Virus record (IMG/VR): IMGVR_UViG_2531839146_000012
Direction: 5' to 3' (one strand)
DNA length: 9,403 bases
From: a virus
Lineage: Duplodnaviria > Heunggongvirae > Uroviricota > Caudoviricetes
Position 1 is the first letter of the stretch; every line of letters starts with the position of its first letter. Under the pieces are notes generated by a model. It had not been told where the DNA came from and did no database searches. It saw nothing but the letters and a program-made list of their open reading frames with translations. Shown here one piece after another: positions 1 through 9,403 of the stretch. A program made the position numbers and the translations under genes.

Positions 1-395
<395 letters not shown>

Positions 396-2275: not shown

Positions 2276-2303
2276 TTGACTTTTGTGTGCTATGAAATAT
2301 AAT
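2276..2303 (+). promoter_or_regulatory. Putative sigma70 promoter firing into the repeat region
   Basis: -35 TTGACT (2276-2281), 16-bp spacer, -10 TATAAT (2298-2303). No ORF follows. Confidence 0.4.
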
Positions 2304-2337
2304 TAAAGGTTTTTTGTTTTTATCGTGTGATGTAGTG

Positions 2338-2780
2338 GATTACACAGGGGGATAGATTAAATGGTGTTCTGTTTATACAGGTTTATTTGTTAGATCAACA
2401 ATTTGGCATTTCTAAACAGATGTTTGAACGTTGCCAAATGTATTGACAACACAAGAAAAGGGCTTGCTATGCCACGCATTACACGGAATAAGGCTGTAAA
2501 AACAAAATAAATTTTAAAATTTGCACAAACGAGAAAACTCGTTCAGAAACAAGCAGAACAATTTTTAGCCAACAATTTCTGATGGTGCTCTGTAAACCGC
2601 ATTACACAAGGCTTTGCGAAAGTGATGTAAAAGTGAAGAAAGCTAACATTGCACTTTGAAGCCATTTTTCATTGGATTTTTTAGTAGGGAATTACACAGG
2701 GAATAGAGAGCATTATTCTATGATTTACACAGGGAATATAGGGGATTATGGCACACACATAGAAAGGCATTACACAGAGT
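2338..2780 (+). repeat. Dispersed direct repeats of G(C/G)ATTACAC(A/G)GG (iteron-like), six copies
   Basis: ATTACAC cores at 2339, 2478, 2601, 2691, 2769 and a TTTACAC variant at 2724, each preceded by G(G/C/A) and followed by (A/G)(G/A)G. Confidence 0.6.
2401..2439. promoter_or_regulatory. Nested imperfect palindrome ATTTGGCA...AAACA-GA-TGTTT...TGCCAAAT, operator-like
   Basis: Outer arms 2401-2408 and 2432-2439 are exact reverse complements; an inner palindrome AAACAGATGTTT lies between them. A TTGACA at 2443-2448 follows. Confidence 0.35.
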
Positions 2781-2808
2781 GAGTGCTATGTGATGATTGG
2801 TAGTAACG

Positions 2809-2843
2809 GTAGGTCACTGTGAGCTACCCCCACAGAATTCTGT
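2809..2843. repeat. Isolated copy of the 22-bp repeat core (GGTAGGTCACTGTGAGCTA) followed by CCCCC and a perfect 12-bp palindrome ACAGAATTCTGT
   Basis: 2809-2827 matches the tandem unit at 3028-3135; the palindrome at 2832-2843 is flanked by TACCCC on both sides. Confidence 0.5.
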
Positions 2844-2883
2844 TACCCCTATCAAGTCTGATACCCGATAAGTATAAATAACA

Positions 2884-2981
2884 CCTAGGAAATGATTTCC
2901 GATCTATTTAGGAAGTAACCTAGGAAGTGGTTTCCTACCTACTTAGGAAATGAGTTCCTACCTACCTAGGAAATGAGTTCC
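2884..2981. repeat. Four CCTAGG-GGAAAT-G-A(T/G)TTCC palindromic sites, the last three at 23-bp pitch
   Basis: GGAAATGATTTCC at 2888-2900 is a perfect odd-length palindrome; GGAAGTGGTTTCC at 2923-2935; GGAAATGAGTTCC at 2946-2958 and 2969-2981. Confidence 0.6.
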
Positions 2982-3006
2982 ACCAATACTATAATTAAAT
3001 AATATA

Positions 3007-3022
3007 AATAATATTCTTTATA
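3007..3022. repeat. Exact 16-bp direct repeat AATAATATTCTTTATA, left copy; right copy at 3184-3199
   Basis: Identical 16-mers at 3007-3022 and 3184-3199 bracket the 22-bp tandem array and its AT-rich flank; both continue with similar (C)TATAT sequence. Confidence 0.55.
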
Positions 3023-3027
3023 CTATA

Positions 3028-3135
3028 TAGCTCACTGTGAACTAGGGGGGGTAGTTCACTATGAGCTAGGGGGTAGGTCATAGTGAGCTAGGGGGTAGGT
3101 CATAGTGAGCTAGGGGGTAGGTCACTGTGAACTAC
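3028..3135. repeat. Five tandem 22-bp repeats (unit about TAGGTCATAGTGAGCTAGGGGG), each with a palindromic TCAC-N-GTGA core
   Basis: Units start near 3028, 3050, 3074, 3096 and 3118 with 22-bp period; the first unit is in inverted orientation (AGCTCACTGTGAACTAG). Followed by an AT-rich stretch with (TA)6 at about 3203-3214. Confidence 0.65.
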
Positions 3136-3324
3136 AATAAGACTATTAATAAAACTATATTAGATTATTAATTAGATCATAATAATAATATTCTTTATAT
3201 CTATATATATATATGATCTTTTGCCTTCCGGCGTTAGCTTCACTCTCTGGCAAGCAGCCTTACTCCGCTACCTTTCGGGCTTCGTGGCTGGCCCGTTCCG
3301 CTCACACCGAAAGCAAAGCGTTAC

Positions 3325-3366
3325 TTTCTTCGTGTAACTATCGTGGCGGTAACGCCCACGAAGAAA
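3325..3366 (+). other. Stable hairpin with GNRA-type tetraloop (GGCG-GTAA-CGCC) nested in a 9-bp outer stem
   Basis: TTTCTTCGTG (3325-3334) pairs with CACGAAGAAA (3357-3366); inner GGCGGTAACGCC at 3345-3356. Sits in a locally GC-richer segment (about 3216-3420). Confidence 0.35.
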
Positions 3367-3600
3367 TACTATTGCGCTGTGCGCAGTAAGAGTAATCACC
3401 TAACCAATCATACTGATTGCTTATGTGTTAACTCTCTCTACTCTTAATTACCCTCCTACATATAATAACTCTGTTATTCTCTGTAGTTGTGTAATTACTC
3501 GAAGAGAGAGCGGCTAAAGCTCAATTACACTCTGCTTTCCTCGTGTAATTTCACTAAGCCTCAATACAATTCCACTTCCTACTTCTGTAGTCGTGTAATT
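3330..3600 (-). repeat. Inverted copies of the ATTACAC motif (CGTGTAAT) plus a 20-bp direct repeat CT(C/T)CTGTAGT(T/C)GTGTAATT
   Basis: GTGTAAT at 3489-3495, 3543-3549 and 3593-3599; GTGTAAC variant at 3333-3339; one direct ATTACAC at 3524-3530. The 20-mers at 3479-3498 and 3582-3600 are near-identical. Confidence 0.5.
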
Positions 3601-3640
3601 GTTTTCGGTGGAAAAGCCAGAGGCGACACCGAAAGAGAAT

Positions 3641-3710
3641 TCTGATCTTATTAATCTTATCTATCTTAGTTAATCTTCTTACTTATCTTACTTTATCTAC
3701 TTTATTATTA
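3641..3710. repeat. Pyrimidine-rich cluster of TTATCT / ATCTT motifs (AGATAA on the minus strand)
   Basis: TTATCT at 3657-3662, 3683-3688 and 3693-3698, plus several ATCT variants. Confidence 0.4.
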
Positions 3711-4220
3711 ATAATAGCTTTATAAGCTCTCTGACGCAAGAAACAGCATTCAGGAAGGGAATCACCTTAGAAAAGGTGTTCTTTGCGTCATAATGTGTTT
3801 TATGAGGGATTCAGAGGTGTTTCATAACAGGAATGTATAGAGGATACTTTAGGTAATTAAAAATAAGGGGTCTAAATGCTTCTCTAACAGCATTAAGCAG
3901 GGTAGGGAATGGAAACGCATTGCCTACACATATAGGCTCACTACAGAGCTTTACAGAGCGTTTTATAAAGTGACTCTCTATCTTATATCTACCATCACCT
4001 TTTCATATACCTAACAAATACAAAATAAGCCCCTTAAATAAGCCTCTGGCGAGCTAAACAGCCATTAGATAAGGGAATGTATTGCTTTTATCAAAATCTC
4101 GTTAGAACGCGTTTTAGAGCGTTTTAGACAATAATGAAGAATAGCACTACACAGAAGAGCACGAATAGCTAAGAAAAAATGTAAGTACATGAAAAAGATC
4201 AGATTTTTTGTGAAAAGGTA

Positions 4221-4249
4221 TTGACAAATGTTTCTTTATATGTAATAAT
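4221..4249 (+). promoter_or_regulatory. Putative sigma70 promoter of the early operon
   Basis: -35 TTGACA (4221-4226), 17-bp spacer, extended -10 TGtAATAAT (4241-4249). It lies about 110 nt upstream of the first gene. Confidence 0.5.
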
Positions 4250-4359
4250 AGGTATTAGAGGGACAGAAAAACATTCTTCTCTAAATAATCAAAATCAATG
4301 CACTTTGAAGCCGTCAGGCTTGCAAGGTGTTTTTCTTTTAACTGAATAAGGAGTTTTTT

Positions 4360-4548
4360 ATGAAATGGTTTACCCCGGAGCACGTCATCTCGGCATTTAA
4401 AAAAGGTGAGCTTACACGCCATCAAGTAGTAATGAATCGTAATATGGCAAGGAGTCGAGGTTATCCAGAGCGAGCAGCTTGCTTCAATGAAGCACTCAAG
4501 ATTATTGATGAATTAAGAAAAAATGAAAAAGAATCTGAAACAGAGTAA
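4360..4548 (+). CDS. Small hypothetical protein (62 aa), first gene of the early operon
   Basis: AAGGAG RBS at 4348-4353, 6-nt spacer, ATG 4360. No family recognised. Confidence 0.6.
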   Translation: MKWFTPEHVISAFKKGELTRHQVVMNRNMARSRGYPERAACFNEALKIIDELRKNEKESETE

Positions 4549-4567: not shown

Positions 4568-4735
4568 ATGAGCGAAACCAAGAAACCAATTCCGCGCACT
4601 TACCTACACGTTGACCCTGAAATCTTCAAGGTTTTATTTGCTGAAGCCAAGAAAAGGCAAATTATGGTCAGTGATTTGATGTTAGAAATCATTACTGAAG
4701 CAGCAGAGAACATCAAACAAAAAAAGGGTAAGTGA
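4568..4735 (+). CDS. Ribbon-helix-helix (CopG/Arc/MetJ-like) DNA-binding protein, 55 aa; below the ORF-track cutoff
   Basis: AAGGAG at 4555-4560, ATG 4568, stop TGA 4733-4735. Translation MSETKKPIPRTYLHVDPEIFKVLFAEAKKRQIMVSDLMLEIITEAAENIKQKKGK fits a beta-strand / helix / helix layout typical of RHH proteins. Confidence 0.55.
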   Translation: MSETKKPIPRTYLHVDPEIFKVLFAEAKKRQIMVSDLMLEIITEAAENIKQKKGK

Positions 4736-4786
4736 TCCTCATTCACTTTAGTAGCGCATTAAGCGTGATTTATAAGGAGATTTTTA

Positions 4787-5479
4787 ATGATTAATCAACT
4801 AACTTTTACAAAACACTATGACACGTTTGATAATGTATCAAAGATTTATTCTGATAAATTCCCTCAAGGAAAAGATTTAGATCTATTACATATTGTGCTT
4901 TATTTTCGATTCCTTAGTTATCAGGAAAACAACCTTAATTGTTATGAAAGTCACGAAACATTAGCTAAGATTTTTAAGTCTTCAGCGTCAACAATTAAAC
5001 GTAAGATAAACGATCTTAAAGAGATGGGATTATTAGAAACATCCCCACATCCTGATCCGTATATTTCATCTTTGATTTACAATGCTCTCCCTCTCACAGA
5101 TGCACATATTACTCCCCCAGGAGAATCATCACTCTCTGATCTTTCTGAGGCAGAAGAAGCACAGGAACAACCTAAAGGCCATAAACAGCCTTCTTTTGAT
5201 GTTCTTGATGATGATTGGGATGCGCCTTTACCGTGGGAGACGGAAGAAACACCTGTTTCATCAAGTGAAAAGGTAGCTAATGATAATGAGGAGGATGTGT
5301 TAGAGAATTTTGCCTCTCTTATCATCCGGGAGAAACACAGAAGAACAGGAGGATCATCATTTATAGACTTTGCAAATTCACTGGCTTATAGACACGGGCT
5401 AAAACGACCAAATGGTATTGAGGCATATTTTGCTAAGAAACATCCCAAAGTATATGAAGACTTTGATATTCCATTTTAA
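4787..5479 (+). CDS. Winged-HTH protein (HTH_36 / replisome-organizer-like N-domain), acidic linker, C-terminus ending EDFDIPF
   Basis: AAGGAG at 4774-4779, ATG 4787. The N-terminal ...CYESHETLAKIFKSSASTIKRKINDLKEMGLLE matches the usual winged-HTH pattern of phage/plasmid replication organizers. An acidic low-complexity linker (DDDWDAPLPWETEE...) follows; the last residues are YEDFDIPF, stop 5477-5479. Confidence 0.8.
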   Translation: MINQLTFTKHYDTFDNVSKIYSDKFPQGKDLDLLHIVLYFRFLSYQENNLNCYESHETLAKIFKSSASTIKRKINDLKEMGLLETSPHPDPYISSLIYNALPLTDAHITPPGESSLSDLSEAEEAQEQPKGHKQPSFDVLDDDWDAPLPWETEETPVSSSEKVANDNEEDVLENFASLIIREKHRRTGGSSFIDFANSLAYRHGLKRPNGIEAYFAKKHPKVYEDFDIPF

Positions 5480-6714: not shown

Positions 6715-6932
6715 TAGGGTGATTATTTTTCCTTTATTGGTTCGATATTAAAAATTCTTCTTGTCGTTAAAGGGGAGTAAAATCTCCGCTCCCCGCTTCT
6801 CCTCCTTAAGTAATACTGTGTCATTATTACCTCTTTCCTTTGTTATGCATACATCTTGGAGTGTGCATAACATAGGGTAATTACATAGGTACAAGTTAAT
6901 AAAAGGCGGCTTTAAATGCTGCCTTTTATTTT
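6715..6932 (+). ncRNA. Candidate roughly 220-nt leader / small RNA from the promoter to the intrinsic terminator; no ORF
   Basis: Promoter at 6679-6707 and terminator at 6901-6932 with no ORF over 11 codons between them. Alternative hairpins GGGGAG...CTCC...CTCCCC (6772-6794) and a 9-bp stem TGTTATGCA / TGCATAACA (6841-6849 / 6865-6873). Confidence 0.35.
6901..6932 (+). terminator. Rho-independent terminator
   Basis: Stem AAGGCGGC (6903-6910) / GCTGCCTT (6918-6925, one G-U pair), loop TTTAAAT, then TTATTTT. Confidence 0.6.
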
Positions 6933-6994: not shown

Positions 6995-7207
6995 ATGTTG
7001 TTCTTAAATGATAAAGAGCAAATCATCAAGTATCGCGATGAAATGCTAAAGATCAATCCACAAATTACCGAAATGGTAGCTAAATACGCTGGGTGTTCTG
7101 TCGAGGAAGTAGAAAGATGTGTTGAAAAATATTTTTCTCCTTCTTCTCCGTCTACACCTTCCCTTAATGAATTAATCAAATTAAAAGCTAAGGAGATTAC
7201 TAAATGA
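6995..7207 (+). CDS. Small hypothetical protein (70 aa), first late gene
   Basis: ATG 6995 with a weak AAGG RBS; its stop overlaps the next start (ATGA at 7204-7207), suggesting translational coupling. Confidence 0.5.
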   Translation: MLFLNDKEQIIKYRDEMLKINPQITEMVAKYAGCSVEEVERCVEKYFSPSSPSTPSLNELIKLKAKEITK

Positions 7208-7566
7208 TTATTGATTTAGACACTCTGTTTCCAGTTCGAAAGACTTTCACAGATATTGTAAGTTATTGTACTGATCCGTTTGCCTCTGTAGAAAGCAAGG
7301 TTTTTGCTTCTCTTCCTGCTGATGTTGAGTGCGGAGACTTGATCACCAGCACTGGCGCTAAATATGAATCAGGAGATGATATCTATGTTGTTATGAGTGA
7401 ATTTGTAACGGCTGGAGCAAACAAGCCTGTAGATGTGCTACGTAGCAATGCTGGGCTTGTATGCATCAAAGCTGATGCCCTGAATGCTGTAAGTGAAGCA
7501 GCAAAAGCAGCATTAATTAAAAAAGGCTTTCAGCTTGAAGGGTTCCATTCTGTTTTCACTTCTTAA
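7204..7566 (+). CDS. Hypothetical protein (120 aa) immediately upstream of the capsid homolog; possible head accessory (decoration or scaffold-like), unproven
   Basis: AAGGAG at 7191-7196, ATG 7204. The accessory-protein role is suggested by position only. Confidence 0.7.
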   Translation: MIIDLDTLFPVRKTFTDIVSYCTDPFASVESKVFASLPADVECGDLITSTGAKYESGDDIYVVMSEFVTAGANKPVDVLRSNAGLVCIKADALNAVSEAAKAALIKKGFQLEGFHSVFTS

Positions 7567-7584: not shown

Positions 7585-8613
7585 ATGATTCTAGGTAATG
7601 ATTACGTTGATTTAGCTCCTCTGTTCTCTGCGCATAGCACTAGAAATTATCTGCTTTCTACTCTTGATTTTACGGATTCTGTAGGGGTTACATCTCATAA
7701 AGTGGCTGTTAGCCAACTGGTGGAAACTAACGAATCTCTGTTCAACAAAGAAACCTCTCGTTTCTCTTCTGAACATAACGTGACTAAGCGTGAACAAGGT
7801 AAAGAATATCTGATTGAAATCCCGTACTTTTTAAGGGAAGACCTGATCAAACCGCAGGACGTGCAAGGCAAACGTAAACCTGGCACTGATTTTCAGGAAA
7901 CACTCACTGATATTTATGCTGACTATGTTGCTAAACACAATGTTGCATTCCAGCGTACAAAAGAGAGCGTGTTGGCGGCTTCTTTGTTCTCTGGCAAAAC
8001 TTACACGCCTAAAACTGATGATGTTCTTATCGAATGGGGCAAGCTGTTTAACGTATCAGCTATGAAAGCCACTGTGAACGCTTCCAGCACTGACACCACG
8101 AAGATTTTTAAAGAATTTGATCAGATTGCTACTGACATTATCGAGAAAGCACAAAGCCAGGCGGCTGCTGTAGAGCGTATTGTTGTTTTCTGTAAGCCGG
8201 AAGCCTTCTCTGCAATTCGATTCTCTGCTGGTATGGCAAACGCATTCCAGTATGTAAGCCCACTGGAAGAGGGGAACGTTGTGTATCAGCGTCGTGACCT
8301 GCTGCCAGGGGTGACAGCGTTCACTATTCCAGGAACTAACATTGATGTTATTAAACTGGTAGATCCGCTACACCTGGCACATATGACCGCAGACGCTGTA
8401 GCGATTCCGAAGTTTGCTAAAGGCTCTAACGTATATCAGAACATCTACGGGGCTGCTTCCAGCACTTTTGAACTGATTAATGCCGATCCTACTGAGGTCT
8501 ATAGCTACAGCTATGAATCTTCTCGTGGTGATGCTGTGAACGTTGTTACAGAGAATAGCCAGATGGTTGTTAACCACGGTGTAGGCTTCTCCGTTCAAAT
8601 CACTGTTAAATAA
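7585..8613 (+). CDS. Putative phage major capsid protein, T7 gp10-like (342 aa)
   Basis: AAAAGGA RBS, ATG 7585. By eye, the segment AVERIVVFCKPEAFSAIRFSAGMANAFQYVSPLEEGNV aligns with T7 gp10 ...ADRVFYCDPDSYSAILAALMPNAANYAALIDPEKGSI (shared R, C-x-P, SAI, M-x-NA-x-x-Y, P-x-E-x-G) at a similar position in a protein of near-identical length (342 vs 345 aa; T7 sequence from memory). Followed by a strong terminator. Confidence 0.6.
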   Translation: MILGNDYVDLAPLFSAHSTRNYLLSTLDFTDSVGVTSHKVAVSQLVETNESLFNKETSRFSSEHNVTKREQGKEYLIEIPYFLREDLIKPQDVQGKRKPGTDFQETLTDIYADYVAKHNVAFQRTKESVLAASLFSGKTYTPKTDDVLIEWGKLFNVSAMKATVNASSTDTTKIFKEFDQIATDIIEKAQSQAAAVERIVVFCKPEAFSAIRFSAGMANAFQYVSPLEEGNVVYQRRDLLPGVTAFTIPGTNIDVIKLVDPLHLAHMTADAVAIPKFAKGSNVYQNIYGAASSTFELINADPTEVYSYSYESSRGDAVNVVTENSQMVVNHGVGFSVQITVK

Positions 8614-8916: not shown

Positions 8917-9183
8917 ATGTTAGAAATTAACACTTCTAAAATTAAGAACACAGTTACATTTAGTGTAGATAAAGACAGCTTGAAAAAAGCGAAAGACTCT
9001 ATTACAGGCTTAAAGGAATTCGCAGAAAACATCAAGCCAGCTAAATTAAGGTTTGATAATGTCACTAAAGGCTATAAGAAAGCACAAAGTGAAGTAGATA
9101 AGATTACTAAAAAGCAAGCCCAGGCTGATAAAGCTAATGCTAAAGCACAATTAGCCGCTCAACGTGTAGTTGCAAGAGGGTAA
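8917..9183 (+). pseudogene. Lys/Ala/Gln-rich (coiled-coil-like) protein gene truncated by the IS1 insertion
   Basis: AAGGGGA RBS, ATG 8917. The frame runs into the IS1 terminal inverted repeat starting at 9179, and the stop TAA (9181-9183) is supplied by the IS1 end GGTAATGAC. Translation ends ...AQLAAQRVVARG. Confidence 0.5.
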
Positions 9184-9403
9184 TGACTCCAACTTATTGA
9201 TAGTGTTTTATGTTCAGATAATGCCCGATGACTTTGTCATGCAGCTCCACCGATTTTGAGAACGACAGCGACTTCCGTCCCAGCCGTGCCAGGTGCTGCC
9301 TCAGATTCAGGTTATGCCGCTCAATTCGCTGCGTATATCGCTTGCTGATTACGTGCAGCTTTCCCTTCAGGCGGGATTCATACAGCGGCCAGCCATCCGT
9401 CAT
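9179..9403 (-). mobile_element. IS1 right end (partial; continues beyond the window)
   Basis: 9179 onward reads GGTAATGACTCCAACTTATTGATAGTGTTTTATGTTCAG..., the reverse complement of the canonical IS1 right terminus including the GGTAATGACTCCAACTTATTGAT inverted repeat. Confidence 0.9.
9194..9403 (-). CDS. insB: IS1 transposase InsB, C-terminal fragment
   Basis: Track [72 protein letters not shown] is the recognisable C-terminus of IS1 InsB; stop at 9196-9194. Confidence 0.9.

Follow-up and report, generated by a model that had tools for sequence, protein, structure and literature searches.

The locus that we analyzed, a 9,403-bp stretch of viral DNA (IMG/VR record IMGVR_UViG_2531839146_000012; hereafter the window), contains within 98 bp of non-coding sequence four copies of a short GGAAAT-type palindrome. 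The question that it raises is which protein recognizes these palindromes, and to what end. A first-pass annotation, made on the basis of the letters only, had suggested the binding sites of a dimeric regulator and, as a second analogy, a packaging site. A comparison with related elements leads to a different answer, namely that the palindromes are quite probably the iterons of a replication origin whose initiator is not encoded by the element itself.

A phage satellite of E. coli

The window represents an IS-damaged copy of a family of ~11-kb phage satellites of E. coli. Its main features are listed in Table 1. Since the tape-measure-like gene is cut by the IS1 element, this copy of the satellite is probably defective. 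Using megablast coverage thresholds, on which this and the other genome counts below rest, the ~11-kb integrative element was recovered in around 700 of 5426 complete E. coli genomes, with intact copies residing at tRNA-Thr, tRNA-Gly, tRNA-Leu or a LysR-family gene. In its intact form the element comprises, read from left to right, a 2-3-kb stretch without annotated genes, several small ORFs, the gene for a 230-aa HTH protein, and the genes for a major capsid protein of the lambda-E type, a tape-measure-like protein, a Dit-like tail protein and a tyrosine integrase. A terminase gene is lacking.

The family was described bioinformatically by Barth, Dunham and Seed in 2023 (PMC10448857). They reported 224 putative satellites, which were predicted to be targets of the 'odn' nuclease homologues of coliphages Inny, Muut and Mt1B1_P17, and one of our loci, L007 (CP010140), is listed in their supplementary table. 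The genes in the window and in its intact relatives agree with the gene set of Odn-targeted satellites given there (no terminase or portal, a tRNA or lysR site), and the likeness extends to the integrase, the decoration-like, capsid, tape-measure and baseplate/Dit-like proteins and the modular Rep N-terminus. The present analysis differs in its subject, as the paper makes no mention of iterons, palindromes, the non-coding region or an origin of the E. coli satellites. A literature search for a prior account of these origins recovered this paper only, in which they are not treated.

Two further observations concern the gene content. The left end of the element is a variable cargo slot, which in the window holds an ORF for a secreted-looking protein of 183 aa (1015-1566) and an ORF of 127 aa, and which in some other satellites holds, on the minus strand and directly to the left of the non-coding region, a small gene resembling serine recombinases/DNA invertases (Resolvase + HTH; L003 7889-8428, L007 7966-8517 and L008 7809-8348). 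The capsid protein has no close relative in cultured phages; its best matches, at ~25% identity, are in Pseudomonas Pakpunavirus-like myoviruses, and the Pakpunavirus-like capsid lineage has been grouped with the Stephanstirmvirinae (PMC12846349).

Table 1. Features of the window and of its non-coding region (positions refer to the 9,403-bp window).
Feature	Position	Strand	Description
IS21-family IstB remnant	1-149		Left boundary
Leader with single sites of other families	2803-2863		E-like half-site (2803)
D' site	2808-2831		GGTAGGTCACTGTGAGCTACCCCC; in leader
A site	2832-2843		ACAGAATTCTGT; in leader
B site	2850-2863		TATCAAGTCTGATA; in leader
Putative C-type iteron 1	2886-2902		TAGGAAATGATTTCCGA; contains the perfect-palindrome core 2888-2900
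Extra half-site	2909-2916		TAGGAAGT; within the 35-bp gap; conserved in cognate T3 elements
Putative C-type iteron 2	2921-2937		TAGGAAGTGGTTTCCTA
Putative C-type iteron 3	2944-2960		TAGGAAATGAGTTCCTA
Putative C-type iteron 4	2967-2983		TAGGAAATGAGTTCCAC
AT-rich stretch after C array	2984-3027		44 bp; putative DNA-unwinding element of the orphan module
D-type 22-bp array	3026-3135		Five palindromes of 17 bp (3028-3134), TAGnTCAnnnTGAnCTA, spaced by 22 bp; the resident T1 Rep is predicted to have its cognate iterons here
Second AT-rich stretch	3136-3215		GC 10-18%; putative unwinding element of the resident T1/D origin
Rep-like gene	4787-5479	+	230 aa; HTH_36 domain at the N-terminus of type T1, cognate to D, not C; C-terminal domain conserved between types on this backbone
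Gene in decoration-protein position	7204-7566		No family match
Capsid protein	7585-8613		Phage_cap_E
Tape-measure-like gene, N-terminus	8917-9183		Ends after 88 codons beside IS1; 610 aa in intact relatives
IS1 transposase	9194-9403	minus	Right boundary

The palindromes and their surroundings

The first of the four cores, GGAAATGATTTCC at 2888-2900, is a perfect palindrome of 13 bp. It is followed by GGAAGTGGTTTCC (2923-2935) and by two copies of GGAAATGAGTTCC (2946-2958 and 2969-2981), so that the start-to-start distances are 35, 23 and 23 bp. The underlying pattern GGAANNNNNTTCC (GGAA-N5-TTCC) has four matches in the complete window when both strands are considered, all of them within 2888-2981, where 0.13 would be expected, and none out of 200 shuffled sequences reached this number. 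The four palindromes of the first-pass annotation, three of them at 23-bp spacing, are thereby confirmed. The CCTAGG that was said to precede each copy is indeed present at the edge of the core, but it overlaps the first GG of that core and reads CTTAGG in copy 3. The true symmetric unit of the sites, referred to below as C sites, is 17 bp long (TAGGAA-N5-TTCCTA), and the GGAA-N5-TTCC symmetry would fit a dimeric DNA-binding protein, as was proposed. The motif was also looked for in related elements and found there in the same four-copy architecture, including the half-site.

The C sites are part of a non-coding region of ~2 kb in which the arrayed palindromes belong to five families: A (ACAGAATTCTGT), B (TATCAA-N3-TGATA), C, D (the 22-bp array) and E (GTAAC-N5-GTTAC). 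Downstream of every array with several copies there is an AT-rich stretch. In nearly all elements single copies of other families are located upstream of the main array, and in locus L006 three C sites are followed by two D sites and then by the four A sites that are cognate to its Rep. Within the window, the D array lies 45 bp downstream of the C array with an AT-rich stretch in between, and the sequence AATAATATTCTTTATA ends both the AT-rich stretch after C and that after D (direct repeat D6), making it a plausible recombination joint. Iteron origins are characterized by tandem sites (at least three copies of 17-23 bp at roughly helical spacing) next to AT-rich DNA, and both properties were found for the C array, the GC content being 18% over 2975-3024. 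DnaA boxes (TTWTNCACA) were absent from 2300-4300, the sole match in the whole window being at 6862. A scan of the window with the Rfam covariance models yielded only a sub-threshold chance match, located outside the region of the arrays. The non-coding region as a whole had no match in phages and almost none in plasmids.

Several other elements of the region were recorded. Directly after the second AT-rich stretch there is a GC-rich block (3216-3400, up to 64% GC), which is highly conserved across Rep types; RNA folding of this block gave a modest z of about -2.1 relative to shuffled sequences on both strands, and no Rfam match was found for it. A repeat family ATTACACRG (often ATTACACAGGGAAT) has 17 matches in the window against 3.6 expected. 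Six copies are located on the plus strand upstream of the arrays (2339-2777) and three on the minus strand downstream (3487-3599), so that they flank the arrays in inverted orientation; in L007, which has a diverged backbone, motifs of the type TGTGCAATA occur in their place. Tandem repeats of ~9 bp (TCTTACTTA-like) with a super-period of 22 bp are present at 3645-3708, in AT-rich sequence with a strong skew of C over G. Near-consensus sigma-70-like promoters (11/12 matches each) were identified on the plus strand at 2276-2303, facing the gene-free region and the arrays, and at 4221-4249, in front of orf62 (4360). It is possible that the origin is transcribed through, or that a long non-coding RNA is produced. 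Finally, backbone-II T3 satellites carry after the AT-rich stretch of the C array a near-perfect palindrome of 33 bp (GGGATACCCGTTAGGGAGTCTAACGGGTATCCC; L007 9261-9293), which is absent from the window.

Co-variation between the arrays and the DNA-binding domain of Rep

The HTH protein encoded downstream of the non-coding region (Rep) combines a conserved C-terminal half with an N-terminal domain that occurs in five unrelated-looking types, T1 to T5. All five types match the winged-helix domain HTH_36 in Pfam; RepA_N, the name used in the published description, was not among the Pfam matches at E <= 0.1. The Rep of the window matches PHROG families of replication initiators and O-like proteins (E = 1.9e-9), and the annotation that PGAP assigns to the protein is 'transcriptional regulator'. 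Neither the T1 nor the T3 Rep had a usable match in sequence searches of the PDB. The available Rep homologues are all ~95-100% identical, and a search of the contigs of the genome with Rep identified one locus only.

Array and Rep type were scored in 35 distinct loci of satellites, taken from genomes of E. coli and from IMG/VR, the motif patterns for the array scans being defined from the first loci. In 35 out of 35 loci the array that is nearest to rep, and is followed by an AT-rich stretch, matched the type of the Rep N-terminus: T1 is associated with D (15 loci), T2 with B (2 loci), T3 with C (9 loci), T4 with A (8 loci) and T5 with E (1 locus). These pairings were set up on the first 9 loci and then held on 26 further loci, although many of the 35 are close relatives, so that the set contains around 8 independent type-by-backbone combinations. 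The comparative data thus tie the C sites to HTH_36 type T3, in support of the earlier view that they form a family separate from the 22-bp array.

Judged by the sequences, the association is not merely a matter of shared lineage, since the same pairing recurs on two backbones, the alleles of the neighbouring small ORFs are independent of it and the exchanged sequences form two separate blocks. Types T1, T3 and T4 each occur on both backbones (with capsid proteins ~95% and 74% identical to that of the window) with their array unchanged, and the small-ORF alleles do not track the arrays. Pairwise alignment of the window with elements of type T2, T4 and T5 revealed identities of at least ~95% outside two blocks, one with the arrays (~2820-3180) and the other with the N-terminus of Rep (~4785-5200), between which lie 1.6 kb of conserved DNA. 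When the window is aligned with L014 (T3), the second block extends further, as the orf55 region also differs. As to the small ORFs upstream of rep, those at 4360-4548 and 4568-4735 both occur as two diverged alleles (~95% versus ~62% and 100% versus ~46%, respectively), which assort independently of Rep type and of one another.

A similar organization is known for phage lambda, the origin of which contains four palindromic iterons of ~18 bp that are bound by dimers of the O N-terminal domain and are located next to an AT-rich stretch. Lambda O consists of a swappable N-terminal and a conserved C-terminal domain, and among lambdoid phages the N-terminal domain and the iterons are swapped together. 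The likeness to the satellites is reinforced by the match of the satellite Rep with the 'O-like' families of PHROG. The lambda origin lies inside the O gene, which makes iterons and domain inseparable and precludes a build-up of orphan arrays, whereas in the satellites the iterons and the Rep domain are 1.7-1.9 kb apart.

The second system to which the satellites can be compared is that of the PLE satellites of Vibrio cholerae, in which the DNA-binding domain of RepA co-varies with the iterons of the origin with strict specificity, and in which the phage nuclease Odn cuts at the iterons (PMC8263062). Shared with PLE (PMC7145576, PMC8263062) are the putative origin of semi-palindromic iterons in a non-coding region, the initiator with an N-terminal DNA-binding domain that co-varies with these iterons and a conserved C-terminal domain, and the occurrence in lytic phages of a fusion between the initiator DNA-binding domain and a T5orf172 nuclease, as in ICP1 Odn. 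The differences are that PLE has two specificity types where the E. coli satellites have five, that the domain of the latter scores as HTH_36 and not as RepA_N in Pfam, that the coliphage nucleases have two tandem domains of which one is constant (T3), and that the putative E. coli origins are composite and contain orphan arrays of other specificities. Because the co-variation signature is the same as that of the experimentally validated PLE RepA/ori replicon (PMC8263062), we read the C palindromes as T3 iterons.

The swapping of arrays and Rep domain also bears on the other functions that the palindromes might have. They could form the operator array of a transcriptional regulator, with the HTH protein acting as a master repressor of the type found in satellites, a possibility that agrees with the label 'regulator' in the first-pass annotation and with that given by PGAP. 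Lambdoid operators occur as triplets of palindromic sites, which the 17-bp palindromes at 23-bp spacing resemble, and a phage nuclease could equally have copied the DNA-binding domain of a repressor. We nevertheless consider this quite improbable. A consensus scan revealed no promoter-like site in 2880-2990, the nearest strong ones being those at 2276-2303 and 4221-4249, and the nearest downstream gene (orf62) is ~1.4 kb away. Moreover, an AT-rich stretch follows every multi-copy array, the PHROG matches of the protein are replication initiators and O-like proteins, and the combination of a swappable N-terminal and a conserved C-terminal domain is that of lambda O and PLE RepA. The label 'regulator' is thus not supported.

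The packaging analogy has in its favour that a satellite without terminase must be recognised somewhere by the packaging machinery of its helper (PMC10448857), for which a pac/cos-like site bound by the small terminase of the helper phage could serve. Considering that the array family tracks the Rep domain and not the capsid or tail genes, that near-identical structural genes accompany different arrays, and that both the C array and the alternative B array had chance matches only when compared by BLAST with 50,697 phage records, such a role is highly unlikely and the analogy is not supported. The fact that otherwise near-identical elements carry different arrays might also be explained if the sites were bound by a protein of the host, or by one of the helper phage that has no relation to Rep, as in a decoy for a phage repressor or initiator. 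This explanation appears very improbable: the sites had no matches in phage genomes, and an external protein is unnecessary given that the arrays and the Rep N-terminal domain are exchanged together. On the latter ground we also rejected the idea that the variable arrays serve the repressors or initiators of a helper phage as decoys or operators, as it is the N-terminus of the element's own Rep that changes with them.

A probable orphan array in the window

The pairing of T3 with C implies that the C array of the window lacks its partner. The window encodes a T1 Rep, and the best match of a T3 query within it showed 33% identity, indicating that no T3 domain is encoded. As the resident Rep is of type T1 and the C array goes with T3, the array is an orphan here. 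The cognate initiator is encoded on the same element in L007, L010-L014 and L044-L046. The C array of the window and its AT-rich stretch are base-for-base identical to those of L014, a T3 element with the same backbone, in which C is the last array before rep.

Additional clusters of sites are also known from iteron plasmids (P1, F, R6K), where tandem Rep sites of 17-22 bp lie by an AT-rich region and extra clusters are found outside the minimal origin. Such extra clusters bind the plasmid's own Rep, and those of plasmid P1 (incA) and F (incC) act in copy-number control or handcuffing. The satellite shares with these plasmids the tandem sites, the AT-rich region and the additional cluster, but it differs in that the Rep type to which the orphan array corresponds is absent from the element. 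By analogy, the GGAAAT palindromes could be auxiliary iterons that are cross-bound by the resident T1 Rep for copy-number control or handcuffing. The C and D sites are indeed alike in their geometry and outer bases (17 bp, TAGG...CTA), the T1 and T3 domains are homologous (32-33% identity), and the array is well conserved in T1 elements. However, many T1 elements are without any C array (L008, L020-L023, L030, L031), the C and D consensus sequences match at 8 of 17 positions only, and the diverged RepA domains of PLE do not cross-activate each other's origins (PMC8263062), which makes cross-binding an unlikely explanation. Returning to the orphan T3 module, an EMSA of the C array with the proteins of this island, as suggested in the first-pass annotation, would probably fail, since the cognate T3 protein is not encoded here.

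The window-type C array was recovered in 156 of the 5426 complete E. coli genomes. T3 rep was present in 223 and T1 rep in 239 of these genomes (~4% each), and the carriers of T1 or T3 rep include EHEC O26/O103 and O104:H4 strains. In several genomes of the O26/O103 type with the T1-plus-C arrangement no T3 domain was found, the match being confined to a 49-bp junction. The C array is better conserved than its flanks, with 1 substitution over its 98 bp, whereas in the flanks ~10% of the columns are variable when indels are counted.

Phage nucleases with a T3 domain

A tblastn search of phages with the Rep of the window returned a single protein, inny_184, which consists of two tandem HTH_36 domains followed by a MUG113/T5orf172 nuclease domain. 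The first HTH_36 domain is of type T5 (82% amino acid identity) and the second of type T3 (89%). The same order holds for muut_154 (T2, 99%, then T3), for QNJ49226 of Mt1B1_P17 (T4, 82%, then T3) and for an ORF of phage BI-EHEC (T4-like, then T3). With the contig described below, there are five sequences of Stephanstirmvirinae(-like) phages in which a variable Rep domain (T5, T2, T4, T4 and T1, respectively) is combined with a constant T3 domain. In the four complete genes the T3 domain is followed by the T5orf172/MUG113 nuclease domain (phrog_681 endonuclease, E = 3.9e-18). Over 261 nt, the T3 domain of the phages shares 97-99% nucleotide identity with rep in satellites L046 and L014 (88-90% at the amino acid level). 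In this respect our results differ from the earlier description, according to which the second odn domain has no detectable homology to the repA genes of the cognate satellites (PMC10448857). The BI-EHEC gene (OL505078; L051 1114-2079), which encodes an odn homologue of 321 aa, is absent from the GenBank annotation.

The fifth sequence is located on a 97-kb phage contig (L029/L052; IMGVR_UViG_3300045988_074297) that shares 98.9% identity with Inny along the 2.4 kb preceding the gene. Its odn-like gene occupies the locus of the Inny gene and encodes a protein of which the first 128 residues are 100% identical to the T1 Rep of the window; they are followed by a T3 domain that is ended by the edge of the contig. 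This dual T1 and T3 specificity is an exact match to the D and C arrays of the window. Among the sequenced cultured phages in the collection searched, no T1 version of odn was found. With a T1 Rep domain and no upstream arrays, L029 would seem to be an exception to the co-variation, but it represents a phage odn gene and not a satellite.

For the C array there is thus a phage protein that carries the matching Rep DNA-binding domain together with a T5orf172/GIY-YIG nuclease. ICP1 Odn requires the iterons of PLE for cutting (PMC8263062). Given this requirement and the fusion of the phage T3 domain to a nuclease, the C array is predicted to be a target of the T3 domain of the Odn-like nucleases.

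A model for the C array and its implications

From the repeats, the architecture, the co-variation and the sequence identities described above we infer binding, origin activity, cleavage by the nuclease and an order of events, as follows. A dimer of the T3 Rep would bind each 17-bp palindrome via its N-terminal HTH_36 domain, at sites spaced about two helical turns apart, after which the bound complex would open the adjoining AT-rich stretch and the conserved C-terminal domain of Rep would recruit the replisome. In the window, the resident T1 Rep would use the 22-bp D array and the second AT-rich stretch as its origin. A segment composed of the 22-bp array, the AT-rich stretch and the T1 domain probably replaced a T3 replicon by recombination, by which the C module was left behind, and this module would then be silent unless T3 Rep is supplied in trans. 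Overall, we regard it as quite likely that the palindromes are T3-type iterons and constitute an orphan origin module of the E. coli phage satellite. The functional part of the model follows the analogy with PLE and Odn. Points that speak against this explanation are the close relationship of many of the 35 loci, the single locus behind the pairing of T5 with E, the lack of DnaA boxes in the region and the Pfam assignment to HTH_36 instead of RepA_N. In addition, an orphan array that can still be cut by a phage nuclease would seem costly, yet the array is present in 156 of 5426 genomes and conserved. Its conservation could reflect another function in these elements, or recent clonal spread.

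The nested order of the arrays would suggest a gain of new replicon modules on the side of rep and a shrinkage of older arrays. On this basis one could read the non-coding region as the layered trace of successive replicon replacements, with an arms race against origin-directed phage nucleases as the driving force, a broader proposal that we make tentatively and that is rather doubtful as yet. Each new combination of array, AT-rich stretch and Rep domain would have been acquired on the rep side, older arrays (E, D', A, B) would have been reduced to one or two copies, and the most recent former origin would have been kept whole (C in the window; C and then D in L006). If the record is indeed layered, the orphan C array could allow replication by the T3 Rep of a co-resident or incoming relative, and the locus would be a multi-specificity origin. 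Alternatively, the C array would be an Achilles heel, which would explain the constant T3 module in every known odn homologue of the coliphages.

An iteron origin with a co-varying initiator domain that is targeted by an Odn-like phage nuclease is an already known kind of system. What appears to be undescribed is the assignment of the origin in these satellites, the composite origin with orphan arrays and the finding that the constant domain of the nucleases is of type T3. The analysis identifies the probable replication origins of a widespread family of E. coli satellites and assigns each of the five repeat families to a Rep domain type. In addition, it predicts a concrete DNA target for the constant domain that the Odn-like nucleases have in the Stephanstirmvirinae, which are lytic coliphages, and thereby opens a second arms race between phage nucleases and satellites to direct tests in a tractable host. 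In the evolution of satellites, origins of a composite nature with orphan arrays would be new, and the orphan arrays matter for predicting which satellites a phage can overcome.
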